Positions 1,744-23,732 are shown, counted from the first letter of the stretch. The stretch: DNA of 64,000 nt from Muribaculaceae bacterium (GCA_017427945.1 JAFRRT010000021.1:2259-66258), one strand, 5' to 3'. Translations and numbers: made by a program. The notes: generated by a model from the letters alone, not told the origin.

Positions 1744-3201
1744 ATGAATCACAGAAATATCAGACGATTAGTCACCCTGCTGCTGGGAGCATCTTTCCTG
1801 GCATGTTTATGTGCGTGCGGCGGTCACGGCCAGTTGGAAAAAGCCGTGAGGTCGGCGCTGGTGAGGGGCGACACGACACAGGCAGTCTATGACTCCCTGT
1901 GCTCGATTGTTACCGACAACCCCGGGAAATACAGCGACCTTGTCACGCCCGAGGGCAAGTTGGACCACAAGAAAATGTCAGAATACATCGCTGACTTGGG
2001 CTCGCACCTGCGTCCGCCCATTTATTGGGACACCCGTCGCTATGGCGGTGTCGAGAACCTGTCGCTGACCATCTATTTTGAGCGCAGCGGCTCGATGGTT
2101 CCTTATGACCAGCGTGGCGGAGGCGGCCAGCTGAAGAAGGCCGTTAACGACCTGATTAACCACTTCCCTGCCGGGAGCAAGGTGGACATCAACATCGTGA
2201 ACGACGGCATCTACCCCTACCAGCACACCGTTGACGAGTTCCTGAAAGACCGTGACATCTACCAGAGCACAGCGGGTATCGGCGATGCCAGCTATACCGA
2301 CTTCCAGCTGATTTTCAACAAGATTCTGGAAGCACAACGCCCCGGCAACGTGAGTGTGCTGGTGAGCGACATGATTTATTCGCCCGAAGACACCCACGGC
2401 GTGAGTCTGGACAAGATTTTCAACGAAGAGAACAGCCTCGCTACCCGCGTATTTGCCCGCTACAAGGGCAAGAGCGTGGTGGTGCAGCAGTTCATGGGCG
2501 ACTATAGCGGCAAATATTATCCCTATAACGGCGTGCCGTTCAACTACAGCGGTAAGCGCCCGTTCTATCTGGTGATTATCGCCGACAGCGAGGTGATGGA
2601 CCAGTTGGCCCAGGACAAGCGCTACAGTGGTGTACTCGACGCACCGGGTATCAGAAACAGCTATCGCTTTAACCAAGTCACGAGCGAGGTGCCTTGCCGT
2701 GTGCTTCCCGAATGGAAAGACAACGCAGGACGCTTCCGTGTGAAACACGGCGACGACATTGTGTTGACCAAGTGCCAGGGCGACCGCCAGACCGGCAAGC
2801 TGTGTTTCTCGATGGCTGCCGATCTGAGCGGCCTGATGGCCAATGACGCGTTGCTGACCAATGCCGACAACTATGACGTGCAGAGCATCGACGGTTACAC
2901 CCTTGTGATTAACCCCGTCGATAAGAGCATGTTCACGGCCAACAACAAGGAGTACCTCGAAGGGATGACCCACGTGCTCACGCTCACTGGAGACTTCAAG
3001 AGCCCGCGCGACGAGGTGCGCATCTCGCTGCGCAACAACCTGCCCGACTGGGTTCGCCAGTCCTCAAGCGACAACGACACCCAGGCCGATGGCTCGTTTG
3101 CCACAACGACCTTGGGCCTGGAGCAGCTGTTAGGTGGCATGTTTGACGCGATGAAGGGCGGCAGCAGCTACTTTGACGTGACCATCAACCTACAACGATA
3201 A
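1744..3201 (+). CDS. Lipoprotein with a vWA-like domain
   Basis: Signal peptide with lipobox-like LCAC-GG. IYFERSGSM resembles MIDAS DxSxS with E in place of D, and VLVSDM is the downstream MIDAS-type Asp strand. Confidence 0.7.
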   Translation: MNHRNIRRLVTLLLGASFLACLCACGGHGQLEKAVRSALVRGDTTQAVYDSLCSIVTDNPGKYSDLVTPEGKLDHKKMSEYIADLGSHLRPPIYWDTRRYGGVENLSLTIYFERSGSMVPYDQRGGGGQLKKAVNDLINHFPAGSKVDINIVNDGIYPYQHTVDEFLKDRDIYQSTAGIGDASYTDFQLIFNKILEAQRPGNVSVLVSDMIYSPEDTHGVSLDKIFNEENSLATRVFARYKGKSVVVQQFMGDYSGKYYPYNGVPFNYSGKRPFYLVIIADSEVMDQLAQDKRYSGVLDAPGIRNSYRFNQVTSEVPCRVLPEWKDNAGRFRVKHGDDIVLTKCQGDRQTGKLCFSMAADLSGLMANDALLTNADNYDVQSIDGYTLVINPVDKSMFTANNKEYLEGMTHVLTLTGDFKSPRDEVRISLRNNLPDWVRQSSSDNDTQADGSFATTTLGLEQLLGGMFDAMKGGSSYFDVTINLQR

Positions 3202-3280: not shown

Positions 3281-3736
3281 ATGAAACATCTGGTATATTT
3301 AATTATTGGCATCGCGCTGACCGTGCTGTTCTTCATCCTGAGCTGCACCGACGGCTTCAACATCTGGGAGCAGATGTTCTTCAACCAGGGCTACAACGAC
3401 AAGATGTTCAGCCTGGACATGTATCCCGTGATTGCCGCCATCACCATCCTCGTGGCTTGGGGTGGCGCCGCCATCTATTATTACGCCATCAACTCGGTGA
3501 AGTTCGACCGCTGGTACCATTGGCTTGCCGTCATGGGCGTTGTCGTAGTGCTGGCTCCCGTGGTGTGCTACATTTACAACGACACCGTATTTGCCAACAA
3601 CGGTCTGATGTACGTCGGCGAGTCCATCAAGTTTGAGATGCAGACGGTACTGTTTGCAGCACTGCTCTATATCGTCGCCTCCTACTCGATGCGCTGGTGG
3701 AGCAGCAACTGCCGCCACACCCCGCTGCCCCAGTAA
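3281..3736 (+). CDS. Small multi-pass membrane protein (hypothetical)
   Basis: 151 aa with about 4 hydrophobic segments, co-directional within the cluster. Confidence 0.75.
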   Translation: MKHLVYLIIGIALTVLFFILSCTDGFNIWEQMFFNQGYNDKMFSLDMYPVIAAITILVAWGGAAIYYYAINSVKFDRWYHWLAVMGVVVVLAPVVCYIYNDTVFANNGLMYVGESIKFEMQTVLFAALLYIVASYSMRWWSSNCRHTPLPQ

Positions 3737-3807: not shown

Positions 3808-5331
3808 ATGAGACTTTTCTTATTTGCTATTGGCGGAACCGGCTCGAGGGTACTGAAGTCCCTGCTGATGTTATCGGCAGCGGGCGCCAGGCCCCTTGAC
3901 GAGAACGGCAAGCCGCTGAAAGACCTTGAGATTGTGCCTGTCATCATTGACCCCCACAAGGCCAACGAGGACCTGAAGCGCACCGAGGCGCTGCTGAACG
4001 ATTACCGCGAAATCAGGCAGAAGCTATACGGCAACGACCCCAACGCTGAGGGATTCTTTGCCAACCGCATTGTCACCCTGCGCGAGATCATGAGCAACAC
4101 AAGTGTGACGCTTGGCGACACGTTCATCTTCAACCTGGGTGCTGTAGAGAACAGCAAGTTCCGTGAGTTCATCGGCTTTGACACGATGAACGAGGCCAAC
4201 CAGGCGCTGACGTCGCTGCTGTTTGCCAACTACCAGTTGGAGAACAAAATGAACATCGGCTTCGTGGGCAGTCCCAACATCGGTAGCGTAGCGCTGAACG
4301 AAATCAAGGACAGCAATGAGTTCAAGGCCTTCAGCAATATCTTCCGCCAGGGAGACCGCATCTTCTTCATCAGTTCCATCTTTGGTGGCACCGGTGCAGC
4401 AGGTTTCCCCATCATGGTGAAGAACATTCGCCAAGCCGCCAACCTAGAAGGCATCGAGAACCGCGACGCCTTGAGCCGTGCGCCCATCGGCGGCCTGACG
4501 GTGCTCCCCTATTTCACCCTCGAAGGCAACAAGCATGACCAGCGCATCGCCACCAGCGACTTCATCGTCAAGACACAGAGTGCGCTGTACTACTATAAGA
4601 ATACGCTCACGGGTGCCAACGACAGCAATGTCAACAGCATCTACTACCTGGGCGACCAGGTGAGGTCGAAGCCCTACCTGTATGACCCGGGAGAGCACGG
4701 CCAGCGCAACAACGCCCACCTCATTGAGCTGATTGGCGCATTGGCACCTCTAGACTTCCTCGGCATGCCTGAGAGCAAACTCACCGACCCCGACGGTTTC
4801 CCGCTGCCCACAACGGCCTATGAGTATGCCCTGGCCAGCGATGAGCTGTCAGTCAACTTCCTGACACTGGGTCGTCGCACCCGCCAACTCATCTATGAGC
4901 CCCTGAGCAAGTTCCACCTGCTGTTCCTGTTCCTGACCACAGGTTTCAAGAACATTATCGGACAAGGTTTCACAGAGGATGTGCCGAAGATCAAGAGCGA
5001 CTTCCTGGCTTCACAGTTCTACCGCACACTGGTTGACCACTTCATGGAAGGTTATGCCCAATGGCTCACCGAGATGAACGACAACATGCGCAGCGTGGCG
5101 CTGTTCAAACCCGGCGAAATCGACATGTCGCATGCCATCGAGGGTGTGAACGTGCGCAAGCGCATGCTCGGCCACTACAAGGTGGACAATGACGTCCTCA
5201 AGAGCGAGATGAACCGCCTGAGCAAGAACAACCCGAGCTACAGCGACCGCTCGGTGGAATTTAAGTTGCTGGACCTGTTCAACCAGGCTGCCCACAACGT
5301 GTTCATCGAACGCTACGAGAATATTAATTAG
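3808..5331 (+). CDS. Divergent FtsZ/tubulin-superfamily protein (tubulin-like GTPase; not cell-division FtsZ)
   Basis: N-terminal AIGGTGSRV (T1 loop), GFVGSPNIG (T3-like) and SSIFGGTGAAG (T4 tubulin-signature-like), followed by GLTVLPYF. 507 aa, with no FtsZ C-terminal peptide. Confidence 0.85.
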   Translation: MRLFLFAIGGTGSRVLKSLLMLSAAGARPLDENGKPLKDLEIVPVIIDPHKANEDLKRTEALLNDYREIRQKLYGNDPNAEGFFANRIVTLREIMSNTSVTLGDTFIFNLGAVENSKFREFIGFDTMNEANQALTSLLFANYQLENKMNIGFVGSPNIGSVALNEIKDSNEFKAFSNIFRQGDRIFFISSIFGGTGAAGFPIMVKNIRQAANLEGIENRDALSRAPIGGLTVLPYFTLEGNKHDQRIATSDFIVKTQSALYYYKNTLTGANDSNVNSIYYLGDQVRSKPYLYDPGEHGQRNNAHLIELIGALAPLDFLGMPESKLTDPDGFPLPTTAYEYALASDELSVNFLTLGRRTRQLIYEPLSKFHLLFLFLTTGFKNIIGQGFTEDVPKIKSDFLASQFYRTLVDHFMEGYAQWLTEMNDNMRSVALFKPGEIDMSHAIEGVNVRKRMLGHYKVDNDVLKSEMNRLSKNNPSYSDRSVEFKLLDLFNQAAHNVFIERYENIN

Positions 5332-5363: not shown

Positions 5364-8300
5364 ATGAGCGAGATATTATCCTATAACAACAGCACGTCGA
5401 AGAACGGCGAAGAGGACTGGATTGCACATGCCCCTTACAGCGATGACGACATCGCGCGCATCAAGGATCCCGATGGTGGCTTGAGCGAGAACCCGCGCAC
5501 CGCCATTCCCAGCCCATTGGCTCAACTCGACCTGGTGAAGAACGCCTTCAAGCAGCTGGCCAACGACCACCTGCGCGGTGCACGCATGAACGAGCGCCTA
5601 GTCTCCAATGCGCTCGACGTGGCACAATTGTTCTTTGACTACGAGAACCATAAAGACTACCTGCGCATCATCAGGTGGAACCGCGAGGAATGCATCGAGC
5701 AGTTAAAGTCCAATCCGCAGCACCGCCTCTACGGCGAGACGTTGGACCTGTTCCTGCGCAGCGACAAGGTCTATAACTTTGACCTGCTGAAGGACTGGTA
5801 CATCATCATGTGGGACCGCAAGGTGCTGGGCGGAACATCTCCGGCATCGGTTGTGATGGCGGCTCCTGCCGTTGGCGTCATCGACGACATCAAAGTGGAG
5901 CAAGGCGTAAGCCTGTTCAGCGAGACACGGCACCTGTGGCAGCGCGACGAGGACTTCGTCTTCTACATGTACCTGCTGATGAATGCCTACCCCACGCTGA
6001 GGTTGCATTGCGGCGAGGTTTATGCCTATATGCAGAAGAACCTCGAGCCGTTGCGCGCCAACCGTCCCGAACTATATAGCCGCCTGACCACCGTCATTCC
6101 CAACCTTGACGCCCTCGACGAAGGACGTGCCAGCACGGTGCTGGAGCAGTTGGAACACAACTATGACCCGTTTGGTGGCGGCATCGACGTGAGTGTGCTT
6201 GGCGCACGCTTCTACCACAAGCGCGCCCTCGACATCCAGTCGGCAGCCAGTGAAAGCGACTTTGTCATCGCTCCCACCATGCCCCAGACCAAGAAGGAAT
6301 TGCCGCTGGCCCTGGTCAACGGCTTCAACGGCAGCGTGGAGCACTTCCGCTACATCGACAAGGAATGGGACAGCGCCACCCAGGTATATGCCAACGGCCA
6401 ACCCTTGAGCGAGCGCAAGCTGCCCGATACCTCGATACAATATCCGTTTGTCACCACCAACGATTTCTTGACCGACACCATCGTCAGGTTGGACAGCGGG
6501 TGCGTCATCGATACCGACCACTTCTTTGACGGCAACCTCAAGCCGCGCACGCCGCAGCCCACCTGCGGCTATCTGCTGCCCTTGAAACCGTTGCTGTTCA
6601 CCTACTTTGACACCGCCTACCTAAAAGGCACCGTCGCCGGCCGCCACGTGATTGACATCGAGGAGTTTGCCGACGGCAGCGTGATGGTCACCCTGCGCAT
6701 CAGGGTGAAGAAAGGCGAGAACCGCTACATCGAGATGTCCCGCAAGTACTTCCCCATCAACGACCACACCTGGTCGTTTGACGAGCGGCGCGGAACAGGC
6801 CGTGTGGTAGGGACCACCCTTTCGACCTCGATATTCCCGTTTGTCAAGACCGACGCCAACGACGACTATACCGTCGAACTGTTCACGATGATTGAGAACG
6901 GCGGAGCCACACTGCGCTTCTACAAGGATGGCATGAAGACCGAAGGGTTGAACGTCAGGGACGCTGACCGTTCACACTCGGGCTACAGCACGACCTACTA
7001 CGATGTGGACGGCTCGTTTGACTATATCGACGTCAGCGTAATGAACCACTTGGGACGCTTTGGAGGTATGATTATCCCGCAATGGAAACCTTACAACCCG
7101 AGCGCCAAGGAATTGATATTTGCTGTGGACTTCGGCACGACCAATACCCACGTAGAGTGGGCCGAGCGAGGCCAGCCTTCACAGCCTTTCACCTTTGAAT
7201 ACGGCTCCAATCAAGTGCTTGTAGCTTCGTTGCACAAGCCCCGCTCGCTGGAGTATGCCGAGCAGGTTCAGCGCGTGGAATTTGTGCCGCGCGAGATTGA
7301 CAACGTCTATGGTTTCCCGCTGCGCTCCACCCTGGCGCGCAACGAGAACAGCGGCGTGGGCAGCAACCTGTTCAGCGACGTGAACATCCCGTTCCTGTAT
7401 GAGCGCCGCTATTTCCACGGCTATGAGGTGACCACCAACCTGAAGTGGAAAGGCGATACCGAGCTGGCAAAAGCCTTCCTGCGTGAGCTCACCCTGCTCA
7501 TCAAGGCCAAAGCCCTGCTTGAAAATGCCGACCTGCGACGCACCGAAATCGTATACTTCTATCCCGTAAGCATGGGCGGCGCTGACCGCGACACGCTGGA
7601 GCGCACATGGAGTGAACTGTTCAACACCTACATTGGTGCCGACAGCGACCGCCTGCGTTCCTACCCCGAGAGCCTCGCTCCCGCCTATTACTACAGCGGA
7701 GCTGAGGTAGCAGGCAGCAGCTATGTGTCTATCGACATCGGCGGCGGCACCTGCGACACGGTAATTTATCAGCCCACGAGCGACAGAATGAGCAGTGAGC
7801 CTGTGGCCATCTCCTCATTCCGCTTTGCCGGCAACGCCATCTTTGGTGACGGCTTTACCGACAAGGATGCCGACAACAACCCGTTGCTGCAGCACTATAC
7901 GCGCTACTTCAAGCAGCTCATCGAGAATGACAAGGGCAACAACATCGCTTACCTGGGCAGCATTCTGAACGACATCATGGCCCAGAAGCGCAGCGAGGAC
8001 ATCAATGCCTTCCTGTTCTCGATTGAGAATGTCGAGGAGCTGCGCTCGCTGCGTGAAATTGACCGCAACCTGTACAGCTACAATGCCCTGTTGCGTAACG
8101 ACAGCCAGCGGCGCCTCATCTTCATGTACTTCTACACGGCCATCATCTATTACATCGCCATGGCGATGAAGCAGCGTGGCTACGAGATGCCCAAGCAGAT
8201 TTACTTCTCGGGCACCGGCAGCAAGATTCTGAACATCCTAGGCTCACACAGCCGCATCAACATGCTCACACAGACCATCATCGAGCGTGTCTTTGACAAG

Positions 8301-8807
8301 CAATACACCGAGCTGTTTGAAATCAAGCAGGAGAACCAGTGTCCCAAGCAAATCACCTGCCGCGGTGGTATCAAACTCGAGAACAGGCGCCTTGAAGGTC
8401 AAGCCGATGTCAGCCGCTACAATGCCACTAGCGTGAAGCGCATGCGCTACTGCTGCTCGATGGTAGGCGAGGACGACCTGACGATGGCCCAAGTGGAATC
8501 TATCGAAGTGCGTGACCGCCTTGTTGAGCAAGTCAAGGTATTCAACCAATTCTTTGTCAACCTGTGTGATGCGGTTGTCAAGGATGAGTTCGGCATCGAG
8601 AACAACGTGCTGAGGCTCTTCGAGAGCGTGCTGAGCGACAACCTCGCCAACTACCTCACGGCTGGCATCAACACGTTCCTGAAAGGCCGATACAATGCCA
8701 ACGACGTGATTGAGGATGTGCCGTTCTTCTACCCGATTATCGGTGTCATCCGCCACAATCTGCTCAAGAACATGCGCAACGACATCATCAGCAAGTTTAA
8801 CCAATAA
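5364..8807 (+). CDS. Large protein with a C-terminal actin/Hsp70-fold ATPase domain (SrfB-like architecture)
   Basis: AVDFGTTNTH (phosphate 1), YPESLAP (connect 1), SIDIGGGTCD (phosphate 2) and YFSGTGSK (adenosine motif). The ~580-aa N-terminal region is unassigned. Confidence 0.8.
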   Translation: MSEILSYNNSTSKNGEEDWIAHAPYSDDDIARIKDPDGGLSENPRTAIPSPLAQLDLVKNAFKQLANDHLRGARMNERLVSNALDVAQLFFDYENHKDYLRIIRWNREECIEQLKSNPQHRLYGETLDLFLRSDKVYNFDLLKDWYIIMWDRKVLGGTSPASVVMAAPAVGVIDDIKVEQGVSLFSETRHLWQRDEDFVFYMYLLMNAYPTLRLHCGEVYAYMQKNLEPLRANRPELYSRLTTVIPNLDALDEGRASTVLEQLEHNYDPFGGGIDVSVLGARFYHKRALDIQSAASESDFVIAPTMPQTKKELPLALVNGFNGSVEHFRYIDKEWDSATQVYANGQPLSERKLPDTSIQYPFVTTNDFLTDTIVRLDSGCVIDTDHFFDGNLKPRTPQPTCGYLLPLKPLLFTYFDTAYLKGTVAGRHVIDIEEFADGSVMVTLRIRVKKGENRYIEMSRKYFPINDHTWSFDERRGTGRVVGTTLSTSIFPFVKTDANDDYTVELFTMIENGGATLRFYKDGMKTEGLNVRDADRSHSGYSTTYYDVDGSFDYIDVSVMNHLGRFGGMIIPQWKPYNPSAKELIFAVDFGTTNTHVEWAERGQPSQPFTFEYGSNQVLVASLHKPRSLEYAEQVQRVEFVPREIDNVYGFPLRSTLARNENSGVGSNLFSDVNIPFLYERRYFHGYEVTTNLKWKGDTELAKAFLRELTLLIKAKALLENADLRRTEIVYFYPVSMGGADRDTLERTWSELFNTYIGADSDRLRSYPESLAPAYYYSGAEVAGSSYVSIDIGGGTCDTVIYQPTSDRMSSEPVAISSFRFAGNAIFGDGFTDKDADNNPLLQHYTRYFKQLIENDKGNNIAYLGSILNDIMAQKRSEDINAFLFSIENVEELRSLREIDRNLYSYNALLRNDSQRRLIFMYFYTAIIYYIAMAMKQRGYEMPKQIYFSGTGSKILNILGSHSRINMLTQTIIERVFDKQYTELFEIKQENQCPKQITCRGGIKLENRRLEGQADVSRYNATSVKRMRYCCSMVGEDDLTMAQVESIEVRDRLVEQVKVFNQFFVNLCDAVVKDEFGIENNVLRLFESVLSDNLANYLTAGINTFLKGRYNANDVIEDVPFFYPIIGVIRHNLLKNMRNDIISKFNQ

Positions 8808-8828
8808 TCATATCAATCTCAAGAAGTT

Positions 8829-10010
8829 ATGAAAAAGATTGCATTAACCTTGGCAGCCATCATCTGCCTCGCCACCTCGGCAATGGCGCAAATCTCCGAG
8901 AACCAGACCCTTTCCACCACATTGTGGAAGCAGGGTATCGCCACTTGTGCCCATTACACAGCCTATGCGCGCGGCTTTGGCAAGCGGGCCGAAGAGATCA
9001 AGTCCCAATATCCCCAAGGCTACACTATTGATGACCTGAACAATGGGGTGTACAGCAACCAAGGCAGGAAATGGGAGAAAATCTACAATGAGTTCAAGGA
9101 AGCCGAAGAGAAGAACGGAAGCATCAACGACCTGAAGGAACTCGTGACGCCGCAAATCTGGAAACTCGTTGAACCCGAGTTCCAGGCGTTCATCACCGAC
9201 CATCCTGAAGCATTGAAGGAAATGCCACCGCAACCGGCCGACGAACAAGCCGAAGCCGACGGTGAAGGCAATGCAAAGGATAATGCCACTGGCGAAGCTG
9301 CTCCCGCCAAGGCAAAGGCAGCCAAATCAGGCGCACCTGCCTGCTCGGCAAATCTGCCCCTGTGGCTGAGTATCATCGGCGCTCTGTTGGGCCTGTGGGC
9401 CCTGCTCACCGCCCTGAGCAACCGCGGCAAACTCAAAGAGATGCGCCGCAATTTCGCCCGTGAGTTGGAGCGCACCAACGCCAACTTGCAGGAGTTCTCG
9501 ACCGACGCCGCCGACCAGATGAAGGCGCTGTCAATCAGGCTGACCGGTAAGGCCATCCGCAAGGATGACAACTTCGAGGAGCCTGTCGTAGAAGACGAAC
9601 CCGTAGAGGGCGAGCCCGAGACGGAAGAAGCCGTTGAGGAAGAGCCCCAGATTGAAGAAGTCGTTGAACAGGCCGTTGAGGAACCGCGTGAGCCTATCAC
9701 CTTGTTCATGTCCAAGCCCGACGAGAACGACGATTTCACCCGCGTGAGCGACACCTTAGAGCCCGGCAACTCCCTCTATGTGCTGGACAGCAAGGACGGT
9801 GAACACGGAACCTTTGAGGTCATCGACAAGCCCGAAGTACACCGCATGGCATTGATGATGCCCACCGAGAACCTGATTCGTGCCTGCTCGGGCAACGCCA
9901 TCCAGATTCCCAGCGGCAACCGCATCGTTACCGACCGTCCCGGTGAGGCAGAATTCATCGACGGCAAATGGCACGTTGTAGTCAAGGCCATTATCCACTA
10001 CGAAGGATAA
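8829..10010 (+). CDS. Signal-peptide protein with an internal TM helix, coiled coil, acidic linker and C-terminal globular domain
   Basis: N-terminal signal sequence; TM LPLWLSIIGALLGLWALLTAL; helical segment KLKEMRRNFARELERTNANLQEF; E/V/P-rich linker. Confidence 0.75.
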   Translation: MKKIALTLAAIICLATSAMAQISENQTLSTTLWKQGIATCAHYTAYARGFGKRAEEIKSQYPQGYTIDDLNNGVYSNQGRKWEKIYNEFKEAEEKNGSINDLKELVTPQIWKLVEPEFQAFITDHPEALKEMPPQPADEQAEADGEGNAKDNATGEAAPAKAKAAKSGAPACSANLPLWLSIIGALLGLWALLTALSNRGKLKEMRRNFARELERTNANLQEFSTDAADQMKALSIRLTGKAIRKDDNFEEPVVEDEPVEGEPETEEAVEEEPQIEEVVEQAVEEPREPITLFMSKPDENDDFTRVSDTLEPGNSLYVLDSKDGEHGTFEVIDKPEVHRMALMMPTENLIRACSGNAIQIPSGNRIVTDRPGEAEFIDGKWHVVVKAIIHYEG

Positions 10011-10027
10011 ACCCTCAATGAGCTAAC

Positions 10028-10125
10028 AGTTAATAGTTAATAGAGAATAGTTGGCAGACTATAACCGTCAACGGGTTAAAGCAACCAACGAAAATCTATT
10101 AACTATTAACTATTCTCTATTAACT
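10028..10125. repeat. Palindromic heptamer element (GTTAATA/GAGAATA arms in inverted orientation)
   Basis: Left arm GTTAATA GTTAATA GAGAATA GTT; the right arm is a reverse-complement array CTATTAACTATTAACTATTCTCTATTAACT. Confidence 0.8.
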
Positions 10126-10133
10126 CAAAAAAC

Positions 10134-10577
10134 ATGCGCTGGACCTGTCCAAAATGCGGCAAAAAGTTGGAAATCAGCAACGAGCAACTCATCGCCAATG
10201 ATGGCGTGATTGTTTGCCCGCAGTGCTTGCTGCAGGCTCGCCAGCCCATTCCCACTGCCCGCGTCGCGGCAAAATATGACAAGGCCGATGCGGACACCAC
10301 ACCCCCAAAACGCACCAAAAACAGTACCCCTCCCCCACACAAGCCCCGCATGAAACAGGCCAAAACGTCCTACCGCTACACCGGCCTCAGTGGCGACAAC
10401 AACAGAGCCACACGTCCATCTACCAAGAAGAAAAGCACCAAAAAGAAATCCAAGAAGAAAAAAGGCAAGGATGAAGGCATGAGCCCGTTGGGCTGCCTGG
10501 GCCGCACCATCATTTTCACGCTGGTGCTGTTCGCCGTTTATGTCTTCTTCGGCCTGTTGCTCGAATCCTTTCAATAA
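10134..10577 (+). CDS. Zinc-ribbon (MJ0042-like) protein with a Lys-rich linker and C-terminal TM helix
   Basis: CPKC...CPQC at the N-terminus; hydrophobic C-terminus. Confidence 0.75.
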   Translation: MRWTCPKCGKKLEISNEQLIANDGVIVCPQCLLQARQPIPTARVAAKYDKADADTTPPKRTKNSTPPPHKPRMKQAKTSYRYTGLSGDNNRATRPSTKKKSTKKKSKKKKGKDEGMSPLGCLGRTIIFTLVLFAVYVFFGLLLESFQ

Positions 10578-10660
10578 CCCCCGCCAAAGCGCCTCCCCGT
10601 TCTTAAAAACAGATAACACAATTTAAGGATATTTCGTGCAGGAATATCGTGCAAAAAGTG

Positions 10661-10668
10661 TAACTTTG
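10661..10668 (+). promoter_or_regulatory. -7 box TAACTTTG
   Basis: TAnnTTTG consensus upstream of the DUF4491 gene. Confidence 0.55.
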
Positions 10669-10727
10669 CAGGACATTTTCGGTCAAGCCACAAAACGGCC
10701 TTGACACGCGGCAAATTTCATGGAGAG

Positions 10728-11072
10728 ATGGCGGATTTTCTCTCGACATATCATTTACAGGGTCTGGTGTTGGGCCTGTGCTCATTCCTGATCATCGGCA
10801 TCTGCCACCCCATCGTCATCAAGGGGGAGTACCATTTTGGACAACGGTTCAAGTGGTTTTTCCTTATTGCAGGTGTGTTGTTGTGCATCGGTTCGCTGAT
10901 GGTCAACAGCGTGATGTTGTCTGCACTGATGGGCGTGGGTGCATTCTCGTGCTTCTGGGGCATCAAGGAGATGGCCGAGCAGCAGGAGCGCGTGCGCAAG
11001 GGCTGGTTTCCCCGCAACCCCAAGCGCACCTACCCTTGGGATGAGAAAGCCGACAAGAAAGACAACGAATAA
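10728..11072 (+). CDS. DUF4491-family membrane protein
   Basis: GLCSFLIIGICHPIVIKGEYHFG and EQQERVRKGWFPRNPKR motifs. ATG 10728 preferred to TTG 10701. Confidence 0.85.
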   Translation: MADFLSTYHLQGLVLGLCSFLIIGICHPIVIKGEYHFGQRFKWFFLIAGVLLCIGSLMVNSVMLSALMGVGAFSCFWGIKEMAEQQERVRKGWFPRNPKRTYPWDEKADKKDNE

Positions 11073-11078
11073 TCGATT

Positions 11079-12908
11079 GTGAAGACGGTGAAGGCGATAA
11101 CCTTGACAACAGTCATGCTTGTGCTGCTTGGCACGGCGATGAGTGCGGCTCACAATGTGAGCGGCACCATTACCTGTGACGGACAGGGTGTCGCCGGTGT
11201 GCCCGTGAGCGACGGTTATGAGGTGGTCCTTACCGATGCCAATGGCCATTATGAGATGACCAGCGGCAAGTACAACGGTTATGTGTTCTACACGCTGCCC
11301 GGCGGTTACGAGCCGATGCTTGCCGATGGCTTCAATCCGCAATTCTGGGCACCGCTCGATTCACATGACGTCAATGTGAGCGAGACACATGATTTTGAAC
11401 TGCGCCGTGTGGACAATGACCACCACATCATGGTCTTCGGTGCCGACACGCATCTGGCACGCCGCATCACCGACCGCGCCTTTTTCAAGAAAGGTTTCCT
11501 CGCCAGCATGAACGAGGAGGTAGAACAAGCGGGCGACCTGCCCATCTATTCCACACTGCTGGGCGACCTCACCTGGGACGTGTTCTGGACCCAGAACGAT
11601 TATGACCTACACGATTTCATGGCCGACATGAAAACATGGAACTATCCCATGACGCTGTGGCCCGTTATCGGTAACCACGACCACGACCCCAGCGTGCCTG
11701 CCGGCTCTACCACCGACTTTGACGCCGCCCAGGCATGGCGCGACATCGTTTGCCCGAATTACTACAGTTTCAACTTGGGCAAGATTCATTATGTCGTCCT
11801 TGATGACATTAATTACCTGAACGAGGCGATACCCGGCGAAAACTACTCCGAGGGTGTCGTCGGCAGCCGCAACTACCGCGGAGTCATCGCTGATTATCAA
11901 CTCAACTGGCTGCGTAAGGATTTGGCGCAAGTGGAGCACAATGTTCCTCTGGTCGTGTGCATACACATCCCCGCTTGGTCAGTCACCTCCCAGTTCGGCT
12001 ATTACTCGCGACTGGACAACACCTACGCGCTGTGTTCCATTCTCAGGCATTATGACAACGTCCACATCGTGAGCGGCCACACCCACGGCAACTATACCGT
12101 GCGCACCTCAGGCTATCCCAACATCACCGAGCATAACATCGCCGCTGTGTGCGGCACGCTGTGGTGGAGCGCGTCAGTGTCAGGCCACAACGTTTGCCAT
12201 GACGGCAGCCCCGCGGGTTATTCACTGTGGGAAGCCGATGGCGACAACCTACGCTGGACGTACAAGGCCACAGGAAACGGCAATGACCAGATGCGCTTGT
12301 ATGACATGAACACCGTGCGCAACTTTTATCGCACCAACAGCACGATATCTGCTCTCTTGAACGAATATCCCTCGCGGGTGGATTTCTCGACGATTGACGA
12401 CAACTTGGTCATGGTAAATGTGTTTGCCTATGACAACGACTGGCAGATAAGCATCTGCGAGGGCGACAGCCTGCTGGGTTGCCAACGTGTTTGCACCGAA
12501 GACCCCTTCCACACCATTGCCCTTGACGTGCCGCGATGGGATGCCGTAGGCTACTTTTCATCAGACTATGCCACAAGCCGTAACACCCACATGTTCGAGG
12601 CCCAGGCCGTGACAGCGACCGAGCCCATCACGGTGCGCGTCATCGACAGATTCGGCAACATTCATCTGCGTTCCATCTCCAGGCCGCACACCTACAGTGC
12701 CAGCATGGAAAAGCAGGAGACCAAATTAACTGCCGGCGACGTGAATGCCGACAGGGAGATAAACATTACCGACGTGAACGCCATCATCAACATGATTACC
12801 ACCGGTAAACGGAAGGGTTATGTGCCCGTCCTCATCGACTGCAATGCCGACAACGAAGTGAACATTGCTGATGTGAACAAAATCATTGACACAATCATAA
12901 CACAATAA
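11079..12908 (+). CDS. Secreted calcineurin-like metallophosphoesterase with a C-terminal dockerin-like domain
   Basis: Motifs [19 protein letters not shown] and SGHTH. C-terminal [15 protein letters not shown] / [14 protein letters not shown]. Confidence 0.85.
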
Positions 12909-15155: not shown

Positions 15156-16383
15156 GAGAATACTTTTAATGGTGCTTACCGTAGCCATGGGCTGCGGTGC
15201 GGCACAGTCACAAACCATCAATACTCCGTACTCCAAGATGGGCTACGGCATGCTCAACGATAACGTGTCGAGCATTCAACGCTCGATGGGAGGCGTGGGT
15301 TATGCCATGAAGGGCGGACGCATCGTCAACGTGATGAACCCTGCTTCCTATGCCGACGTGGACTCCCTCACCTACCTGTGGGACGTGGGCATTGACTTGA
15401 CGAACCTGTGGAGCAAAGAGAATGACAACAAGGGATACAGCTTTGGCGGCGGACTGGACTACCTGACCGGACATTTCAAGGTTGCCAAAAAGTTAGGCGC
15501 AGCATTCGGACTGTTGCCCTATTCGTCTGTCGGTTACGCCTATGGAGGTGATATCACTGGCGGCAGTGAGGCGCGCAGCGGCAGTGGCGGTCTCAACCAG
15601 CTGTTCCTGGGTGTGGGTTATGAGCCTATCAAGAACCTGAGCGTGGGTGTGAACTTCGCCTACCTCTTCGGTTCGACATCCAACACGACGCTCATCAACG
15701 CAACCTCAACGAGCTACTTCACCCGCAACATGAGCATCAGGGACTGGAACGCCCAAGCCGGTATCCAGTACAGCCTGCCCATTGCCAAAGGTCGTGACAG
15801 GCTCACCCTGGGTGCATCTTTCCAACCCAAGAAGTCGTTCCACGGCAACACATGGGGTACCAGTTTCGACAGTCAGGACACCAAAGTGGACACCATCGGC
15901 TACACCTCGATGAAGGGCAACTATGAGCAGCCCGCCACCATCGGCGTAGGACTGAGTTATGACTTTGACCGCCGTCTTACCGTTGAAGCCGACTACACTT
16001 ATCAGGCCTGGAGCAAAGCAAAATATCTTCCCATCGCCGGTTTTGAGCCCCAAACGATGCAGTTTGACGACCGCTGGAAACTTGCTGCCGGTGTTCAGTA
16101 CTCACCCAACAAGCGCGGCAGCTTCTTCGGAGCGATGTCTTTCCGTGCCGGTGTCTTCTACAACCACGACTATCTGAACTACAACGGCAACAACGTGCGG
16201 GACTACGGTGCCAGCATCGGTGTAGGACTTCCCGCTCCCAACAGCAAGACTACTGTCAACCTGGGATTGGAATGGCGCCACCGCGAGACCAGCCCGGTAC
16301 AACTCATCACCGAGAACTACCTCAACATTACGCTGGGCGTGAATTTCAACGAGTTGTGGTTCTGGAAGAGCCGCATCCGTTAA
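15142..16383 (+). CDS. Outer-membrane beta-barrel protein (FadL-like family)
   Basis: Signal peptide; TPYSKMGYG and NPASY motifs; alternating beta-strand pattern; ends WFWKSRIR. ATG 15142 chosen as start. Confidence 0.75.
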   Translation: MKSYKRILLMVLTVAMGCGAAQSQTINTPYSKMGYGMLNDNVSSIQRSMGGVGYAMKGGRIVNVMNPASYADVDSLTYLWDVGIDLTNLWSKENDNKGYSFGGGLDYLTGHFKVAKKLGAAFGLLPYSSVGYAYGGDITGGSEARSGSGGLNQLFLGVGYEPIKNLSVGVNFAYLFGSTSNTTLINATSTSYFTRNMSIRDWNAQAGIQYSLPIAKGRDRLTLGASFQPKKSFHGNTWGTSFDSQDTKVDTIGYTSMKGNYEQPATIGVGLSYDFDRRLTVEADYTYQAWSKAKYLPIAGFEPQTMQFDDRWKLAAGVQYSPNKRGSFFGAMSFRAGVFYNHDYLNYNGNNVRDYGASIGVGLPAPNSKTTVNLGLEWRHRETSPVQLITENYLNITLGVNFNELWFWKSRIR

Positions 16384-16387
16384 CAAC

Positions 16388-16987
16388 GTGAGACGACTAC
16401 TGCACATAGCTTTTGCGCTGCTCGTGGTGACAGTCGGGATGGCCGGATGCAAGGATGACTCCACCAGTATGGTGAGCCATGCCACCGATCCCGAAAAAGT
16501 ACCCACCATGACAACATCTGACGTGCAGACTGTCATCAGCGACTCGGGGCACACCCGATACCGCATCGCCGCTCCGTCGTGGAACATGTTTGAAGAAGCC
16601 AAAGAGCCGCATTGGACTTTTCCCGAAGGGGTGACCTGTGAGGAACTGGACAACAATTACAACACCGTTTCCACCATCAAATGCGACTCGGCCTATTTTG
16701 ACAAGAACAAATCCCTGTGGAAACTGGTCGGCAATGTGCACATCACTAATGTCTCTGGCGACATTGTGACCACTGACGAGCTGATGTGGGACCAGCATCT
16801 ACACAAGCTTTACAGCAACGCGTTCATCCACATCGAGAAACAGGGCCGCATCATCGAGGGATATGGATATGAGTCGAACGAGCGGCTCACCACCTACCAG
16901 TTGAGGCAGGTGGAGGCCATCTTCCCCATCGACGAGCGGCGCATGCCTCACCCTAACAGTGGCAATGCTCCTCAAAAAATGAGATGA
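16388..16987 (+). CDS. lptC: LPS export periplasmic protein LptC-like (lipoprotein)
   Basis: Lipobox MAGC; WTFPEG, DSAYF and TDELMWDQ segments; conserved Bacteroidetes gene order. Confidence 0.75.
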   Translation: MRRLLHIAFALLVVTVGMAGCKDDSTSMVSHATDPEKVPTMTTSDVQTVISDSGHTRYRIAAPSWNMFEEAKEPHWTFPEGVTCEELDNNYNTVSTIKCDSAYFDKNKSLWKLVGNVHITNVSGDIVTTDELMWDQHLHKLYSNAFIHIEKQGRIIEGYGYESNERLTTYQLRQVEAIFPIDERRMPHPNSGNAPQKMR

Positions 16988-17030
16988 CATGCACAACGAA
17001 CTGACAACAACGATATTATTATAAATCATT

Positions 17031-18320
17031 TTGGATCCTAGTTACACCACTCCGCTGATTATCGCGCTCATCGCGCTGCTGTGCTCGGCCTTCTTCTCGG
17101 GCATGGAAATCGCCTTTGTGTCTTCCAATAAAGTGCGGGCCGAGATCGAGATGGCGCGCGGCGGTATCATCAACCGCATACTCAACATCTATTACCGCAA
17201 CCGCGAGATGTTCATCTCCACGTTGCTGATTGGCAACAACATAGCCAACATCGTGTACTCGATGGCTATGGCAAAACTGCTCACCATCCCCTTGCAGAGT
17301 TGGGTAGGCAACGAGGCGGTACTGCTGTTGGTGCAGACCATTATTGCCACACTGATTATTCTCATCTTCGGAGAGTTCGTTCCCAAGACGATATTCCGCA
17401 TCAACCCCAATGCCTCATTGCGCACGGCCTCCATCCCCCTGTTCATGGCATATTGCACGCTCTACCCCATCTCACGCTTCACCGAGTGGCTGTCAGCGTC
17501 GCTGATGAAACTGTTCGGCATCAAGATTGACTCTACCAGGGTGCGCCTGCTCACCGTTGACGAGCTGGATGCCTACCTGCAAGAGAACATCGACAAACGT
17601 GAGGATGAGAACAAGAGCGTGGAGCGCGAGGTCAAAATTTTTGAGAACGCCCTCGACTTCAGCGACACCCGCCTGAGGGACTGCATGGTACCGCGTAATG
17701 AGATTGTCGCCGTCGATGTCGAAGAGACCACACGCGAGGACCTGGTAAAACTGTTTACACGTTCAGGACTGTCCAAGATTGTGGTCTATAAGGAGAGCAT
17801 CGACGATGTCATCGGCTTTATCCAGGTCAGTGAACTGTTCGTTACCACTGTTGACTGGAAAACCCGCCTCAAACCTGTGGTGTTTGCCCCTGAGACCTTA
17901 CTTGCCCGCAAGATGATGCAGCAACTTATGGACGAAAAACGCTCCATGGCTATCGTCATCGACGAGTTTGGTGGCACCAGCGGCATGGTCACCCTGGAAG
18001 ACCTGGTGGAAGAAATCTTTGGTGAAATCGAGGACGAGCACGACAAGAACCGACTCACTGCCCGACAAATCAACGAGAGTAGCTATGAGTTCTCGGGACG
18101 CATGGAAATCGAGGAAATCAACGAGCGTTTCCACCTCGACATCCCTGAGAGCGACGACTACCAGACCCTTGCCGGCTACCTGCTTGCCGAGGAGGAAGCC
18201 ATCCCCAATGTGGGCGACGTGATTGAGCTGCCGCCATACCGCTTTACCATCGAGCGCAAGACCGCGGCACGCATCGAACTCATCCGTGTAGATATCATCA
18301 GCGAGGACGAGAAGAAATAA
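17031..18320 (+). CDS. HlyC/CorC-family (CNNM/DUF21 + CBS + CorC) transporter
   Basis: FFSGMEIAF, GEFVPK, VIDEFGGTSG, LEDLVEEIFGEIEDEHD and YQTLAG motifs. Confidence 0.92.
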   Translation: MDPSYTTPLIIALIALLCSAFFSGMEIAFVSSNKVRAEIEMARGGIINRILNIYYRNREMFISTLLIGNNIANIVYSMAMAKLLTIPLQSWVGNEAVLLLVQTIIATLIILIFGEFVPKTIFRINPNASLRTASIPLFMAYCTLYPISRFTEWLSASLMKLFGIKIDSTRVRLLTVDELDAYLQENIDKREDENKSVEREVKIFENALDFSDTRLRDCMVPRNEIVAVDVEETTREDLVKLFTRSGLSKIVVYKESIDDVIGFIQVSELFVTTVDWKTRLKPVVFAPETLLARKMMQQLMDEKRSMAIVIDEFGGTSGMVTLEDLVEEIFGEIEDEHDKNRLTARQINESSYEFSGRMEIEEINERFHLDIPESDDYQTLAGYLLAEEEAIPNVGDVIELPPYRFTIERKTAARIELIRVDIISEDEKK

Positions 18321-18415
18321 CCCGCAAGACAAGCAGCAAGACTGCTTATCATGAAAAATGGGTGAATTTAAGCAAAATTTTGTCGAATTATTTGCAATAT
18401 TGAAAAGATTTGCAT

Positions 18416-18423
18416 TATCTTTG
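18416..18423 (+). promoter_or_regulatory. -7 box TATCTTTG of tRNA-Asp
   Basis: Consensus match with an upstream TTTG (-33-like) element. Confidence 0.65.
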
Positions 18424-18450
18424 CACCGCATTTCTGACGAGGTGTAACCA

Positions 18451-18524
18451 GGTGTGTTAGTTCAGTTGGTTAGAATACCTGCCTGTCACGCAGGGGGTCG
18501 CGTGTTCGAGTCACGTACACACCG
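18451..18524 (+). tRNA. tRNA-Asp (GTC)
   Basis: GGTGTGT/ACACACC acceptor stem, anticodon loop CTGTCAC, T-loop TTCGAGT. CCA is not encoded. Confidence 0.96.
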
Positions 18525-18526
18525 CA

Positions 18527-18558
18527 AGAGAGGAATCCATCGAGGATTTCTCTTTTTG
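18527..18558 (+). terminator. Rho-independent terminator after tRNA-Asp
   Basis: AGAGGAATCC...GGATTTCTCT hairpin followed by a T-run. Confidence 0.7.
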
Positions 18559-18702
18559 TTTTATATTCATAGGGTTATTCGTCTATCATACAGACCGTTA
18601 GGGACGGGCGAGCAAGGCTGTCGAAAAAAAATACTTCGAAACCTATAGCAACTCTTAAAAAAAAATACTAAATTTGCGATACATTACTAAAACTATAACT
18701 TC

Positions 18703-19167
18703 ATGGAAAAGATTGACACTCTGGACAAAAAGATTCTGGAAATCATAATGAAAAATGCGCGCATCCCCAGCAAAGATGTAGCACAAGTGTGCGGGGTGTC
18801 GCGTGCAGCTGTACATCAACGCATTCAACGTCTCATCGACGAAGGTATCATCACCGGGTCGGGCTACAACGTCAACCCCAAATCGTTAGGCTACTCCACA
18901 TGCACATTTATCGGCTTGACGCTTGAGAGGGGTTCGATGTACCGCACTGTTGTGCCTGAATTGCTGAAGATCAAGGAAGTTGTGGAGTGTCATTTCACAA
19001 CGGGACACTACACCATGATGATTAAGGTTTATGCCCGCGATAATGAGCACCTCATGTCGCTGGTCAATGACCGCATCCAGCACATCGATGGCGTGGCAGC
19101 TACCGAGACTCTTATCTCCTTGGAACAGAGCATCAACCGTACTCTGCCCATCTACTATGAAGAGTAG
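18703..19167 (+). CDS. Lrp/AsnC-family transcriptional regulator
   Basis: LDKKIL...NARIP...VSRAAVHQRIQRL HTH and ECHFTTGHY motif. -7 box TAAATTTG at 18669. Confidence 0.92.
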   Translation: MEKIDTLDKKILEIIMKNARIPSKDVAQVCGVSRAAVHQRIQRLIDEGIITGSGYNVNPKSLGYSTCTFIGLTLERGSMYRTVVPELLKIKEVVECHFTTGHYTMMIKVYARDNEHLMSLVNDRIQHIDGVAATETLISLEQSINRTLPIYYEE

Positions 19168-19335
19168 CCTTTGGCTCCCTCAAGCGATACTAAGGATATC
19201 AAACCTTCATGCCCAGTCCTACCGAATGCGGGCATTTTGACGCTACAAACCTGTTATCCAGTTTTTTATTTGTAAATTTGAAGCGTCAAATGGCAACAGA
19301 ACATTTAAAACACTATTAAAACAGCAAACACCATC

Positions 19336-20418
19336 ATGATAGAGAATAACCGTTATTGCGTTATCATGTGCGGAGGTGTAGGCAGCCGTTTTTGGCCGTT
19401 CTCCAAAGCCGCAATGCCCAAACAGTTCATCGACTTCTTCGGGACGGGCCGCAGCCTGCTGCAGACCGCAGTTGACCGCATCAGCGACATCGTTCCCCAA
19501 GAGAATATCATTCTCATGACGAACGAGAACTACGAGCACCTGATCAGGGAACAGCTTCCTGATATCAAGGACAACCAGATCCTGCTCGAGCCGGCACGCC
19601 GCAACACGGCTCCGTGCATTGCTTGGGCTGCACACCATATTCAGGCCATCACTCCCAATGCCAAAATCATGGTTGCTCCGAGCGACCACCTCATCATCAA
19701 TGTTGAGAAATTCAAGCAGTGCGTTGAGCGCGCCTTTGACTTCATCGAATCACGCGATGCATTGGTTACAATGGGTATCAAACCCAGCCGACCCGAAACT
19801 GGCTACGGTTACATCCAGGTGGGTGAGCCTGTCGAGGGCGACTTCTCTACAGTGAAAACCTTTACCGAGAAGCCTAATGAGGACCTGGCCCGCGTATTCC
19901 TTAATTCGGGCGAGTTCTATTGGAATTCAGGCATCTTTTTCTGGAGCGCTGACAGCATCCTGAATGCCCTGAACAGCTGCGCCCCCGAGGTGAATGCCGT
20001 TTTTGAACAAGGCAAAGAGTATTTCGGCACCGACCAGGAGCGGAATTACATCGACACCAATTTTGCGGCATGCCCCAGCATCAGCATCGACTTCGCCGTC
20101 ATGGAAAAAGCACCAAACGTCTTTGTCGAGACAGTGGACTTTGGCTGGAACGATCTGGGAACATGGAGGTCGTTGTATGAGCATTCTCCCAAGAACAAGG
20201 ACGGCAACGTCACGCAGAACTGCAAAGCCTTGATGTTCAACAGCCACAACAACATCATAGCCGTTAAGGGCGACAAACTGATTGTCACTTCGGGCCTTGA
20301 AGGATACATCGTCGCCGATGTTGATGACGCTCTGCTCATTGTCCCGATGGAGGAAGAGCAAAAAATCAAGCAATACGTTAACGAGGTAAAATCTAAATAC
20401 GGCGACAAATACCTCTGA
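19336..20418 (+). CDS. manC: Mannose-1-phosphate guanylyltransferase
   Basis: MCGGVGSRFWP, PKQF, EPARRNTAP, FTEKP, WNSGIF, SIDFAVME and GWNDLGTW motifs. Confidence 0.93.
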   Translation: MIENNRYCVIMCGGVGSRFWPFSKAAMPKQFIDFFGTGRSLLQTAVDRISDIVPQENIILMTNENYEHLIREQLPDIKDNQILLEPARRNTAPCIAWAAHHIQAITPNAKIMVAPSDHLIINVEKFKQCVERAFDFIESRDALVTMGIKPSRPETGYGYIQVGEPVEGDFSTVKTFTEKPNEDLARVFLNSGEFYWNSGIFFWSADSILNALNSCAPEVNAVFEQGKEYFGTDQERNYIDTNFAACPSISIDFAVMEKAPNVFVETVDFGWNDLGTWRSLYEHSPKNKDGNVTQNCKALMFNSHNNIIAVKGDKLIVTSGLEGYIVADVDDALLIVPMEEEQKIKQYVNEVKSKYGDKYL

Positions 20419-20451
20419 TGCACATCCAAGCAACAACCTGCAATAAGACCG

Positions 20452-20485
20452 TCACGGGACACCTTTCAAAAAAGATGTCCCGTGA
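20452..20485. terminator. Hairpin between the convergent manC and ssb genes
   Basis: TCACGGGACA...TGTCCCGTGA perfect 10-bp stem. Confidence 0.7.
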
Positions 20486-20513
20486 TTTATTCCGTAGTAA
20501 TTAGAATTGTCCT

Positions 20514-20900
20514 TTATTCCCCTGCGGCCTGCTGTGAGTCGGGAGTCTGCTGTGACATGCCCTCGCGCGGACGAGCCAACAGTTCAAACGTCTCTACATA
20601 AATCTCGGTAGTGAAACGCTTCACCTGGTTCCTGTCTTCCCAGGCGCGTGTGCGCAAGCGGCCTTCAAGGTAAATCTGTGTTCCCTTGCGAATGTAGCGC
20701 TCAGCAATCTCGGCATTCTTGCCCCACATCACAATGTTGTGCCACTCGGTGCGTTCAGGAACCTGCACACCATTGGCATTGGTGTATGCTCTATCGGTAG
20801 TAGCGAGTGTAAAAGATGCCACGGGCTGATTTTGTGCAACATATCGCACATCCGGGTCCCTGCCCACGCGACCCAACAAAATAACTTTATTGACTGACAT
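20514..20900 (-). CDS. ssb: Single-stranded DNA-binding protein
   Basis: SVNKVILLGRVGRDP, RTEWHNIV and EGRLRTR motifs. The acidic DDLPF-type tail is absent. Confidence 0.93.
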   Translation of the reverse strand: MSVNKVILLGRVGRDPDVRYVAQNQPVASFTLATTDRAYTNANGVQVPERTEWHNIVMWGKNAEIAERYIRKGTQIYLEGRLRTRAWEDRNQVKRFTTEIYVETFELLARPREGMSQQTPDSQQAAGE

Positions 20901-20953
20901 AATGAATGGTTTATTAGTTTTACAATTAATTGATAATTCTTCTTAGTTTCTCA

Positions 20954-23243: not shown

Positions 23244-23300
23244 ATGTAGCGAAACAAAACCATAGCACTTAAACAATAAACACACATAAACGAGAAAACC

Positions 23301-23711: not shown

Positions 23712-23732
23712 CCGCCTGCTCATCCTTCTTTC

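Follow-up and report, generated by a model that had tools for sequence, protein, structure and literature searches.

A giant protein with a predicted actin/Hsp70-type ATPase fold is encoded beside a tubulin-like gene in a recurrent Bacteroidota gene cassette

Nucleotides 5364-8807 of a 64,000-nucleotide stretch of DNA from a Muribaculaceae bacterium (GCA_017427945.1, JAFRRT010000021.1:2259-66258; the window in what follows) form a single open reading frame (ORF) on the plus strand for a protein of 1,147 amino acids, which we call P0001. Its C-terminal half is predicted to have the fold of the ASKHA (Hsp70/MreB-like) ATPases and its N-terminal half is largely novel, an architecture of which we are highly confident. 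The gene lies immediately 3' of a gene for a distant tubulin homologue, in a cassette that recurs across the Bacteroidota, and we think it very probable that the two proteins are partners. The explanation that we favor overall, with modest confidence, is that P0001 works with the tubulin-like GTPase as its ASKHA partner, in a machine that is linked to the envelope and probably related to biological conflict; the conflict role on its own is plausible to us, without being something we would quite expect. P0001 falls within the ASKHA superfamily and probably within operons of the FtsZl1 type, but as an unnamed family of its own. All the cassette genes and P0001 segments described below are on the plus strand of the window.

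The first-pass annotation of the window had reported the size of the protein and three ATPase motifs, and a motif search of P0001 found each of these exactly where it had placed them: DFGTTNT at residues 589-595 (nucleotides 7128-7148), DIGGGTCD at 791-798 (7734-7757) and SGTGSK at 949-954 (8208-8225). An N-terminal peptide that it had also picked out, TAIPSPLAQLD, is at residues 46-56 (5499-5531). Its description of a full set of actin/Hsp70 ATPase motifs is borne out too, because P0001 has five ASKHA motifs in the right order, whose key residues are invariant among 138 full-length homologues with about 30% identity, the set on which our conservation statements are based. The ASKHA domain spans residues 581-1010 (nucleotides 7104-8393), as delimited by motifs, conservation, profile search, structural modeling and structural alignment. 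Its motifs are phosphate-1 (DFGTTNT; D589, G591 and T592 invariant), connect-1 (ESLAP, starting at the invariant E769), phosphate-2 (DIGGGTCD; D791, G793, G794 and D798 invariant), the adenosine motif (FSGTGSK, residues 948-954; G950 invariant) and connect-2 (PKQITCRGG, residues 994-1002; K995 and G1001 invariant); by position and pattern, we equate the last two with the corresponding motifs of Hsp70. The domain also contains an invariant K694-W695 pair and a helical IIB-like insert (residues 840-937). P49, D85, F412, P652, P734, P773 and S818 are invariant as well. As judged from these alignments, the motif set is not a product of chance. That the residues contacting the nucleotide do not vary among homologues suggests that P0001 is an intact, active ATPase. 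K694 may be the Hsp70-type catalytic lysine, an assignment that we make tentatively because similarity to known ASKHA families is limited to the phosphate-2 region. Phosphate-1 and connect-1 are 180 residues apart, and phosphate-2 and the adenosine motif about 150, a spacing that is closer to that of Hsp70 than to that of MreB.

An AlphaFold2 model of P0001, made with 68 homologues, has a mean predicted local distance difference test score (pLDDT) of 86.9 and a predicted template modeling score (pTM) of 0.78. Searching the PDB with this model by Foldseek gave 281 matches at E ≤ 1e-3, the best of which were Hsp70 nucleotide-binding domains (NBDs; 6p2u, E = 1.4e-9), MreB (1jce, E = 4e-9) and BeeR, each with a probability of 1.0; target-normalized TM-scores were 0.44-0.58 for domain-sized chains, over 460-500 aligned columns. 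The first-pass annotation had staked its reading on the C-terminal region having a two-lobed actin fold, and the region is indeed modeled in this way, with Hsp70 NBDs and MreB as its structural matches. Profile searches point in the same direction. A profile of the family matched MreB5 (E = 2e-4), followed by Hsc70, FtsA and the actin-like structure 8r2n (solved as a BeeR filament), with every one of these matches covering the phosphate-2 region. When the family profile was compared by hhalign to this genome's own DnaK, E769 was paired with the Glu of NEPTAA and D791-D798 with DLGGGTFD; both with DnaK (18% probability) and with MreB (64%), the aligned part was the phosphate-2 region alone. These alignments place E769 and D791 without assigning P0001 to a family.

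The resemblance to Hsp70 suggests an alternative in which P0001 is a dedicated chaperone, a clamp, powered by ATP, through which one client (the tubulin-like polymer, or else the membrane partners) would be folded, put together or taken apart, with its N-terminal half serving as a built-in substrate-binding module in place of the Hsp70 substrate-binding domain (SBD). The wording of the motifs is closest to Hsp70 (DxGTTNS-like, ExxA, DxGGGTxD and the invariant Lys), their spacing is Hsp70-like, and Hsp70 NBDs are among the best structural matches. Moreover, in NTP-dependent conflict systems, Hsp70 modules have been described by Kaur et al. (2020) as acting as switches (PMC7159879). On the other hand, the MreB matches are equally good; the Pfam HSP70 model (PF00012) does not match P0001 even at E ≤ 10, compared to 864 bits for this genome's DnaK; P0001 ends in a 137-residue helical domain and has no SBD; and the cassette encodes neither DnaJ nor GrpE. 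We therefore consider the chaperone explanation improbable. P0001 shares a fold and the five ASKHA motifs with both DnaK and MreB, but differs from them in lacking any family-level match and in its own N- and C-terminal additions.

Our Pfam tests of family membership covered P0001 and five homologues. For MreB (PF06723), the best match was 16.2 bits, in a homologue, against a cut-off of 27, and involved the phosphate-2 loop only. For FtsA (PF14450), no score exceeded 16.7 bits, where the cut-off is 31.8, and P0001 has no hydrophobic segment. All the sub-threshold matches in the homologues–to MreB_Mbl, FtsA, Ppx-GppA, EutA, Hydantoinase_A, MutL and SrfB–are at the phosphate-2 loop. SrfB deserves separate mention, since the first-pass annotation had called the architecture SrfB-like. 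This description holds as an analogy of layout, in which an ASKHA-type ATPase follows a long N-terminal region, but does not extend to homology. If P0001 were related by descent to the enterobacterial SrfB proteins and had the same function, the similar layout would be explained, and two of the six family members do match PF07520 at E = 0.08-0.12. However, those matches consist of 22-30 residues of a phosphate-2 loop that is common to all ASKHA families, P0001 itself has no PF07520 match even at E ≤ 10, and the neighborhood differs, with tubulin-like and membrane protein genes and no srfA- or srfC-like ones. An SrfB-type function is accordingly very hard to credit. Besides P0001, this genome encodes an ordinary DnaK, an MreB and a third protein matching the MreB_Mbl profile that we take to be FtsA. 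Because the genome has its own DnaK, MreB and presumed FtsA, P0001 is an addition to these proteins and not a replacement for one of them.

P0001 has many relatives but no named ones. Scans of the single sequence against Pfam, NCBIfam, PADLOC and PHROGs, and a phmmer search of PDB sequences, all gave no match, so the N-terminal 580 or so residues that had been left unassigned in the first-pass annotation are still without one. A word-indexed search returned 731 relatives, mostly from Muribaculaceae, none of which has a Pfam domain; those with a name are called 'hypothetical protein'. Using HMMER against 1.84 billion cluster representatives, we found 1,235 clusters of the family (counted at 50% identity) at E ≤ 1e-3, and 726 at E ≤ 1e-30. 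Since nearly all of them are 1,100-1,250 residues long and align from end to end, the two-part architecture is fixed across the family. P0001 is predicted to be soluble and cytoplasmic, because a sequence scan found neither a hydrophobic or transmembrane (TM) segment nor a Walker A motif in it. It belongs to a large uncharacterized family of cytoplasmic proteins of about 1,150 residues, which came only from Bacteroidota in this analysis and which is common in gut and rumen Bacteroidales. The part of P0001 that is least conserved is the C-terminal helical domain (residues 1011-1147, nucleotides 8394-8804, defined from the model and from conservation). It is swapped in some relatives, whose match to P0001 stops near residues 1003-1017.

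The N-terminal half begins with about 50 residues that are modeled with low confidence. Bordering this poorly modeled N-terminus is a peptide, T-[SA]-I-P-S-P-F-A-x-x-[DE]-L-V..AF, at residues 41-62 (nucleotides 5484-5549), which stands out by conservation, entropy and its place in the model. No other stretch of P0001 is as conserved: P49 is invariant, and the mean column entropy, 1.3 bits, is as low as in the ATPase loops. Because the peptide is short, invariant and flexible, we propose it as a candidate docking motif. It is followed by a family-specific alpha/beta domain at residues 63-300 (nucleotides 5550-6263; the region starts at about residue 51), which is recognized from the AlphaFold2 models and Foldseek and is made up of helices (residues 74-133), a sheet (144-184) and a helical bundle (196-266). 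Next comes an extended segment, mostly irregular and yet confidently modeled, at residues 301-428 (nucleotides 6264-6647), with R351, L353, P354, P361, D367, P406 and F412 conserved. The last region before the ATPase domain is all-beta (residues 429-580, nucleotides 6648-7103).

We also modeled the N-terminal half alone, from 30 sequences, and used this model (pLDDT 84.7, with secondary structure that agrees with the full-length model) for Foldseek searches of the PDB and BFVD. The matches were to generic immunoglobulin (Ig)-like beta-sandwiches, with E-values of about 8e-4 or weaker. We assigned them to residues ~430-575, because this is the only all-beta part of the N-terminal half. As they are both generic and weak, we do not take them as homology to a named protein, and read them only as 'beta-sandwich'. 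Residues ~50-420 had no structural match better than E ~ 1e-2 in the same databases, which leaves some 400 residues of the modeled half without a detectable structural relative. Of the roles that the first-pass annotation had suggested for this half (sensor, scaffold or effector), a sensor would be expected to contain a hypervariable segment, and none is seen here.

The gene immediately upstream of P0001, at nucleotides 3808-5331, codes for a tubulin/FtsZ-like GTPase of 507 residues, identified from its motifs, from Pfam scans of orthologues and from gene order. It has GGTGS at residues 9-13 and GGTGAAG at residues 193-199, and both loops are invariant in its orthologues. Pfam Tubulin matched 18 of the 18 orthologues scanned and Tubulin_2 matched 15 of them, all below the curated cut-offs (best E-values 2.8e-4 and 1e-6, respectively). 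In the PDB, a profile of the protein found CetZ alone, at E = 0.084. From these sequence matches, the protein is probably a distant tubulin homologue of the FtsZl1 (Tubulin_2) type.

The pairing of the two genes is highly conserved: the tubulin-like gene is immediately 5' of the ASKHA gene in all 17 loci where upstream sequence could be read. The tubulin-like neighbor noted in the first-pass annotation is therefore real, and its pairing with the ASKHA gene extends across the Bacteroidota. The two genes are 3-230 nt apart or overlap, with one exception. In locus L036 (G321:C6, positions 6443-8083), from the genome of the genus that diverges most, the gap between them is about 1.6 kb, which could be due to an insertion or an extra gene within the core pair; no lipoprotein homologue was found upstream in this locus. 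Other Bacteroidales contain a second, divergent pair of genes, consisting of a tubulin-like protein of ~530 residues (Tubulin_2 E = 3e-5) and an ASKHA protein of ~1,145 residues. The ASKHA region of the latter aligns to P0001 at the same residue positions (hhalign probability 96%). Pairs of this second type are at positions 7722-12866 (minus strand) of L022 and 7503-12690 (minus strand) of L023; one of them adjoins a gene for an HtrA-like trypsin-PDZ protease and the other a gene for an AAA_35/STAND-like ATPase. One genome (G332) has ASKHA pairs of both families.

The adjacency of actin-like and tubulin-like genes had been called unusual, which is true only in part. The genes ftsA and ftsZ adjoin in most bacteria, so neighboring actin-fold and tubulin-fold genes are not uncommon in themselves; what is unusual is a second pair that is not the division pair. 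The likeness to FtsA-FtsZ, a pair expected to act close to the membrane, lies in an actin-fold ATPase gene adjoining a tubulin-fold GTPase gene. The differences are that the tubulin-like gene comes first here, that P0001 is roughly three times as large as FtsA and carries a novel N-terminal half of 580 residues, that the P0001 family's match to Pfam FtsA is below the cut-off, that its distribution is patchy, and that the genome keeps its own MreB and presumed FtsA.

A closer counterpart exists in the literature. Makarova and Koonin (2010) defined FtsZl1 and its operons, which contain genes for vWA, GTPase, OmpA and membrane proteins, and proposed a role in membrane remodeling (PMC2875224). Their FtsZl1 alignment included a Bacteroides sequence, and they described the remaining genes of these operons as lineage-specific and without recognizable domains (PMC2875224). 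Much as in FtsZl1 operons (PF13809), a divergent tubulin/FtsZ-like GTPase, one without the canonical C-terminal half, is encoded in the window cassette beside a putative vWA-type protein and membrane proteins, in genomes that also keep their normal division genes. It differs in that the giant ASKHA partner was not recognized in the 2010 study (PMC2875224), and in that the tubulin-like protein, with 507 residues, is about half of the ~1,050 residues typical of the family and scores under the Tubulin_2 cut-off. A full-text search of the literature found no paper on a Bacteroidota cassette combining a tubulin-like protein and a giant ASKHA protein.

In the window, the pair is part of a run of five co-directional genes, with a probable sixth. 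The first (nucleotides 1744-3201, recognized by gene order and conservation) encodes a probable lipoprotein of 485 residues, in whose family the lipobox Cys25 is invariant, as are E113-x-S115-x-S117 and D209, which are like a metal ion-dependent adhesion site (MIDAS). The protein has no match to Pfam VWA, and its profile gave nothing useful against the PDB; its sequence resembles a vWA-like protein with remnants of the MIDAS. The second gene (3281-3736, by hydrophobicity scan and gene order) encodes an integral membrane protein of 151 residues, with three hydrophobic stretches detected by the scan and a fourth by eye. The tubulin-like and ASKHA genes are third and fourth. The fifth (8829-10010, by sequence scan and gene order) encodes a bitopic protein of 393 residues, in which a signal peptide and a TM segment near residues 174-198 are followed by an acidic linker and then a C-terminal domain. 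The probable sixth gene (10134-10577) encodes a Zn-ribbon protein of 147 residues, identified by library scans and by gene order in relatives, whose N-terminal zinc ribbon is joined to a C-terminal TM anchor by a basic linker rich in Lys, Ser and Thr. This gene is kept directly after the cassette in relatives of the same genus and in locus L006, and the Prevotella locus L007 has a gene for a 304-residue Zn-ribbon protein at the same place. The gaps between successive genes, beginning after the lipoprotein gene and ending before the Zn-ribbon gene, are 79, 71, 32, 21 and 123 nt; an overlap of 4 nt occurs in locus L003. None of the six proteins has a Walker A motif or a match to a P-loop GTPase or other NTPase family in Pfam or NCBIfam.

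The order lipoprotein, small TM protein, tubulin-like protein, ASKHA protein, bitopic protein recurs from Muribaculaceae to Hymenobacter, Flavobacterium and Sphingobacterium. The loci that we compared came from Muribaculaceae, Prevotella, Spirosoma, Gillisia, Sphingobacterium, Flavobacterium, Hymenobacter, Solirubrum, Cytophagales and Chitinophagaceae. Two forms of the cassette can be distinguished. The short form, without stator or enzyme genes, is found in the window and in L003, L006, L007, L008 and L017. The long forms are distant orthologous cassettes (27-37% identity) that have extra genes after the bitopic protein gene. Some of these extra genes resemble the stator of the Zorya defense system: ZorA-like proteins of ~500 residues are encoded in L002, L032 and L009 (E-values down to 1e-8) and, with a weak match, in L033 (E = 1.6e-3), with no ZorA match in L011, and ZorB/MotB-like proteins of 200-230 residues are encoded in L002, L032, L033 and L011 (E-values down to 8e-13). 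Weaker matches to MotB_plug, OmpA or MotA_ExbB occur in L011, L013, L014 and L018. Other extra genes code for enzymes that vary among loci, namely a retropepsin-like Asp protease (L002, L032 and L013), a trypsin-like peptidase (L009), an Endonuclease_NS nuclease (L033), an EEP nuclease/phosphatase (L013) and papain-like (C1) and caspase-like (C14) peptidases (L031). This combination of an invariable core with an exchangeable enzymatic end and a Zorya-type stator follows, by analogy, the pattern of conflict systems. The metagenomic locus L031 (positions 15840-23735) encodes an ASKHA protein of 1,244 residues with a different C-terminus, and after its C1 and C14 peptidase genes comes a helicase and DUF4391 pair; its setting looks like a defense island.

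We propose a model in which the tubulin-like GTPase and P0001 would be the soluble core, with two NTPases, of a membrane-anchored cassette, accompanied by the vWA-like lipoprotein, the small multi-TM protein, the bitopic protein and, in the window, the tail-anchored Zn-ribbon protein. ATP binding and hydrolysis in the ASKHA cleft would switch the conformation of P0001, or make it co-assemble with the tubulin-like protein in its GTP-bound state beneath the inner membrane, and the N-terminal half of P0001 would be an adaptor to partners. The machine would respond to perturbation of the envelope in a conflict setting, directed against phage or other invaders. This kind of response seems to us the most likely one because the distant cassettes add a ZorA/ZorB-like stator and variable proteases and nucleases.

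The other use to which such a machine could be put is housekeeping. A small cytoskeleton of tubulin and actin folds might shape the membrane, in vesicle formation or in local envelope repair, with no part in conflict. This would fit the membrane remodeling predicted for operons in which FtsZl1 occurs with vWA and membrane proteins (PMC2875224), and it would fit the lack of an enzymatic effector in the short form and the even conservation along P0001. It would also fit the distribution of the cassette within the window's genus, where 25 of 25 genomes have one copy. Outside the genus, the picture is different. Only 4 of the 300 other Bacteroidota species genomes that we sampled have a gene of the P0001 family, and among other families of the same order it was found in 1 of 16, with a weaker match to the ASKHA region in that genome and one more. 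Even within the genus, the chromosomal neighborhood of the cassette varies among species. This patchiness and variation of position, together with the joining of the long forms to ZorAB-like stators and to variable proteases and nucleases, as is typical of defense systems, lead us to regard a purely housekeeping role as unlikely, while taking it seriously. From context, the pattern of linkage in relatives favors envelope-triggered conflict over housekeeping membrane remodeling.

Several observations nevertheless count against our preferred explanation of an envelope-linked, conflict-related machine. The first is the presence of the cassette throughout the genus, as just described, which also suits a housekeeping role in the envelope. 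Column entropies show that conservation is even along P0001, with no hypervariable segment of the kind typical of conflict-system sensors. The cassette in the window has no ZorAB-like genes and no recognizable effector, and the five of its six proteins that were scanned with PADLOC (all but the Zn-ribbon protein) had no match. A tblastn search of phage records gave no match, and the sole 'plasmid' match by tblastn is a 1.77-Mb Prevotella replicon without annotation. The interaction between the ASKHA and tubulin-like proteins is proposed from the linkage of their genes, and the likeness of P0001 to known ASKHA families in sequence is confined to the phosphate-2 region.

Two groups of described systems share components with the cassette. 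The long-form relatives are like Zorya in that a gene for a nuclease or protease comes after ZorA-like and ZorB-like genes, but the window has no ZorAB, we detected no homologues of ZorC-G, and the tubulin-like/ASKHA core belongs to no described type of Zorya. Among the DO-GTPase/GAP1-N2 conflict systems, Kaur et al. (2020) described one theme with tubulin homologues and another with HSP70, which are separate, do not overlap and occur mainly in Firmicutes and Actinobacteria (PMC7159879). Those systems are similar in that tubulin homologues, vWA proteins and Hsp70-type NTPases occur in predicted machinery that is membrane-proximal and regulated by NTPs. They differ in that no DO-GTPase or GAP1 match was found in the window cassette, using libraries that may not include GAP1.

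A more specific and more speculative version of the model, which we consider unlikely, is that the tubulin-like and ASKHA proteins co-assemble beneath the inner membrane into a second, non-division 'FtsZ/FtsA-like' structure driven by nucleotides, and that this structure, in its own right, acts as transducer or as effector in a new class of envelope-triggered immune machine in Bacteroidota. In this version, the trigger would reach the short form by way of the vWA-like lipoprotein and the bitopic protein, and the long form by way of a Zorya-type ion-driven motor, with the release or activation of proteases or nucleases as the outcome in the long form. If the two proteins do form a nucleotide-driven assembly, they would be a second bacterial pair of actin fold and tubulin fold, beyond cell division. 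Tubulin homologues of the FtsZl1 type were predicted in 2010; P0001 appears to be their constant partner in Bacteroidota, and together the two proteins make a concrete entry point to this system. The link to a Zorya-like stator in relatives also offers a way into the question of how signals from the envelope are passed to machinery in the cytoplasm.

Other genes surround the cassette in the window. Upstream (within nucleotides 1-1508) are genes for a MoxR-like AAA_5 ATPase and a DUF2201 protein, overlapping by 4 nt. The ATPase has 358 residues, of which the last 107 are encoded in the window (nucleotides 1-324); the region continues upstream of the window in L024 (positions 243-2582). The DUF2201 protein consists of a metallopeptidase-like N-terminal domain and a VWA-like domain, and an ORF of 392 residues without a Pfam match precedes the AAA_5 gene, so that the three-gene layout resembles the MoxR-vWA 'ternary' systems. 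We do not count the AAA_5 and DUF2201 genes as members of the cassette, as they are not adjacent to it in any other locus, including those of species in the same genus. Downstream, nucleotides 11079-12908 encode a calcineurin-like phosphoesterase of 609 residues (MetallophosN/Metallophos/MetallophosC) with a C-terminal type I dockerin. Its gene is directly 5' of trmD, and it is not conserved beside the cassette in relatives from the same genus.

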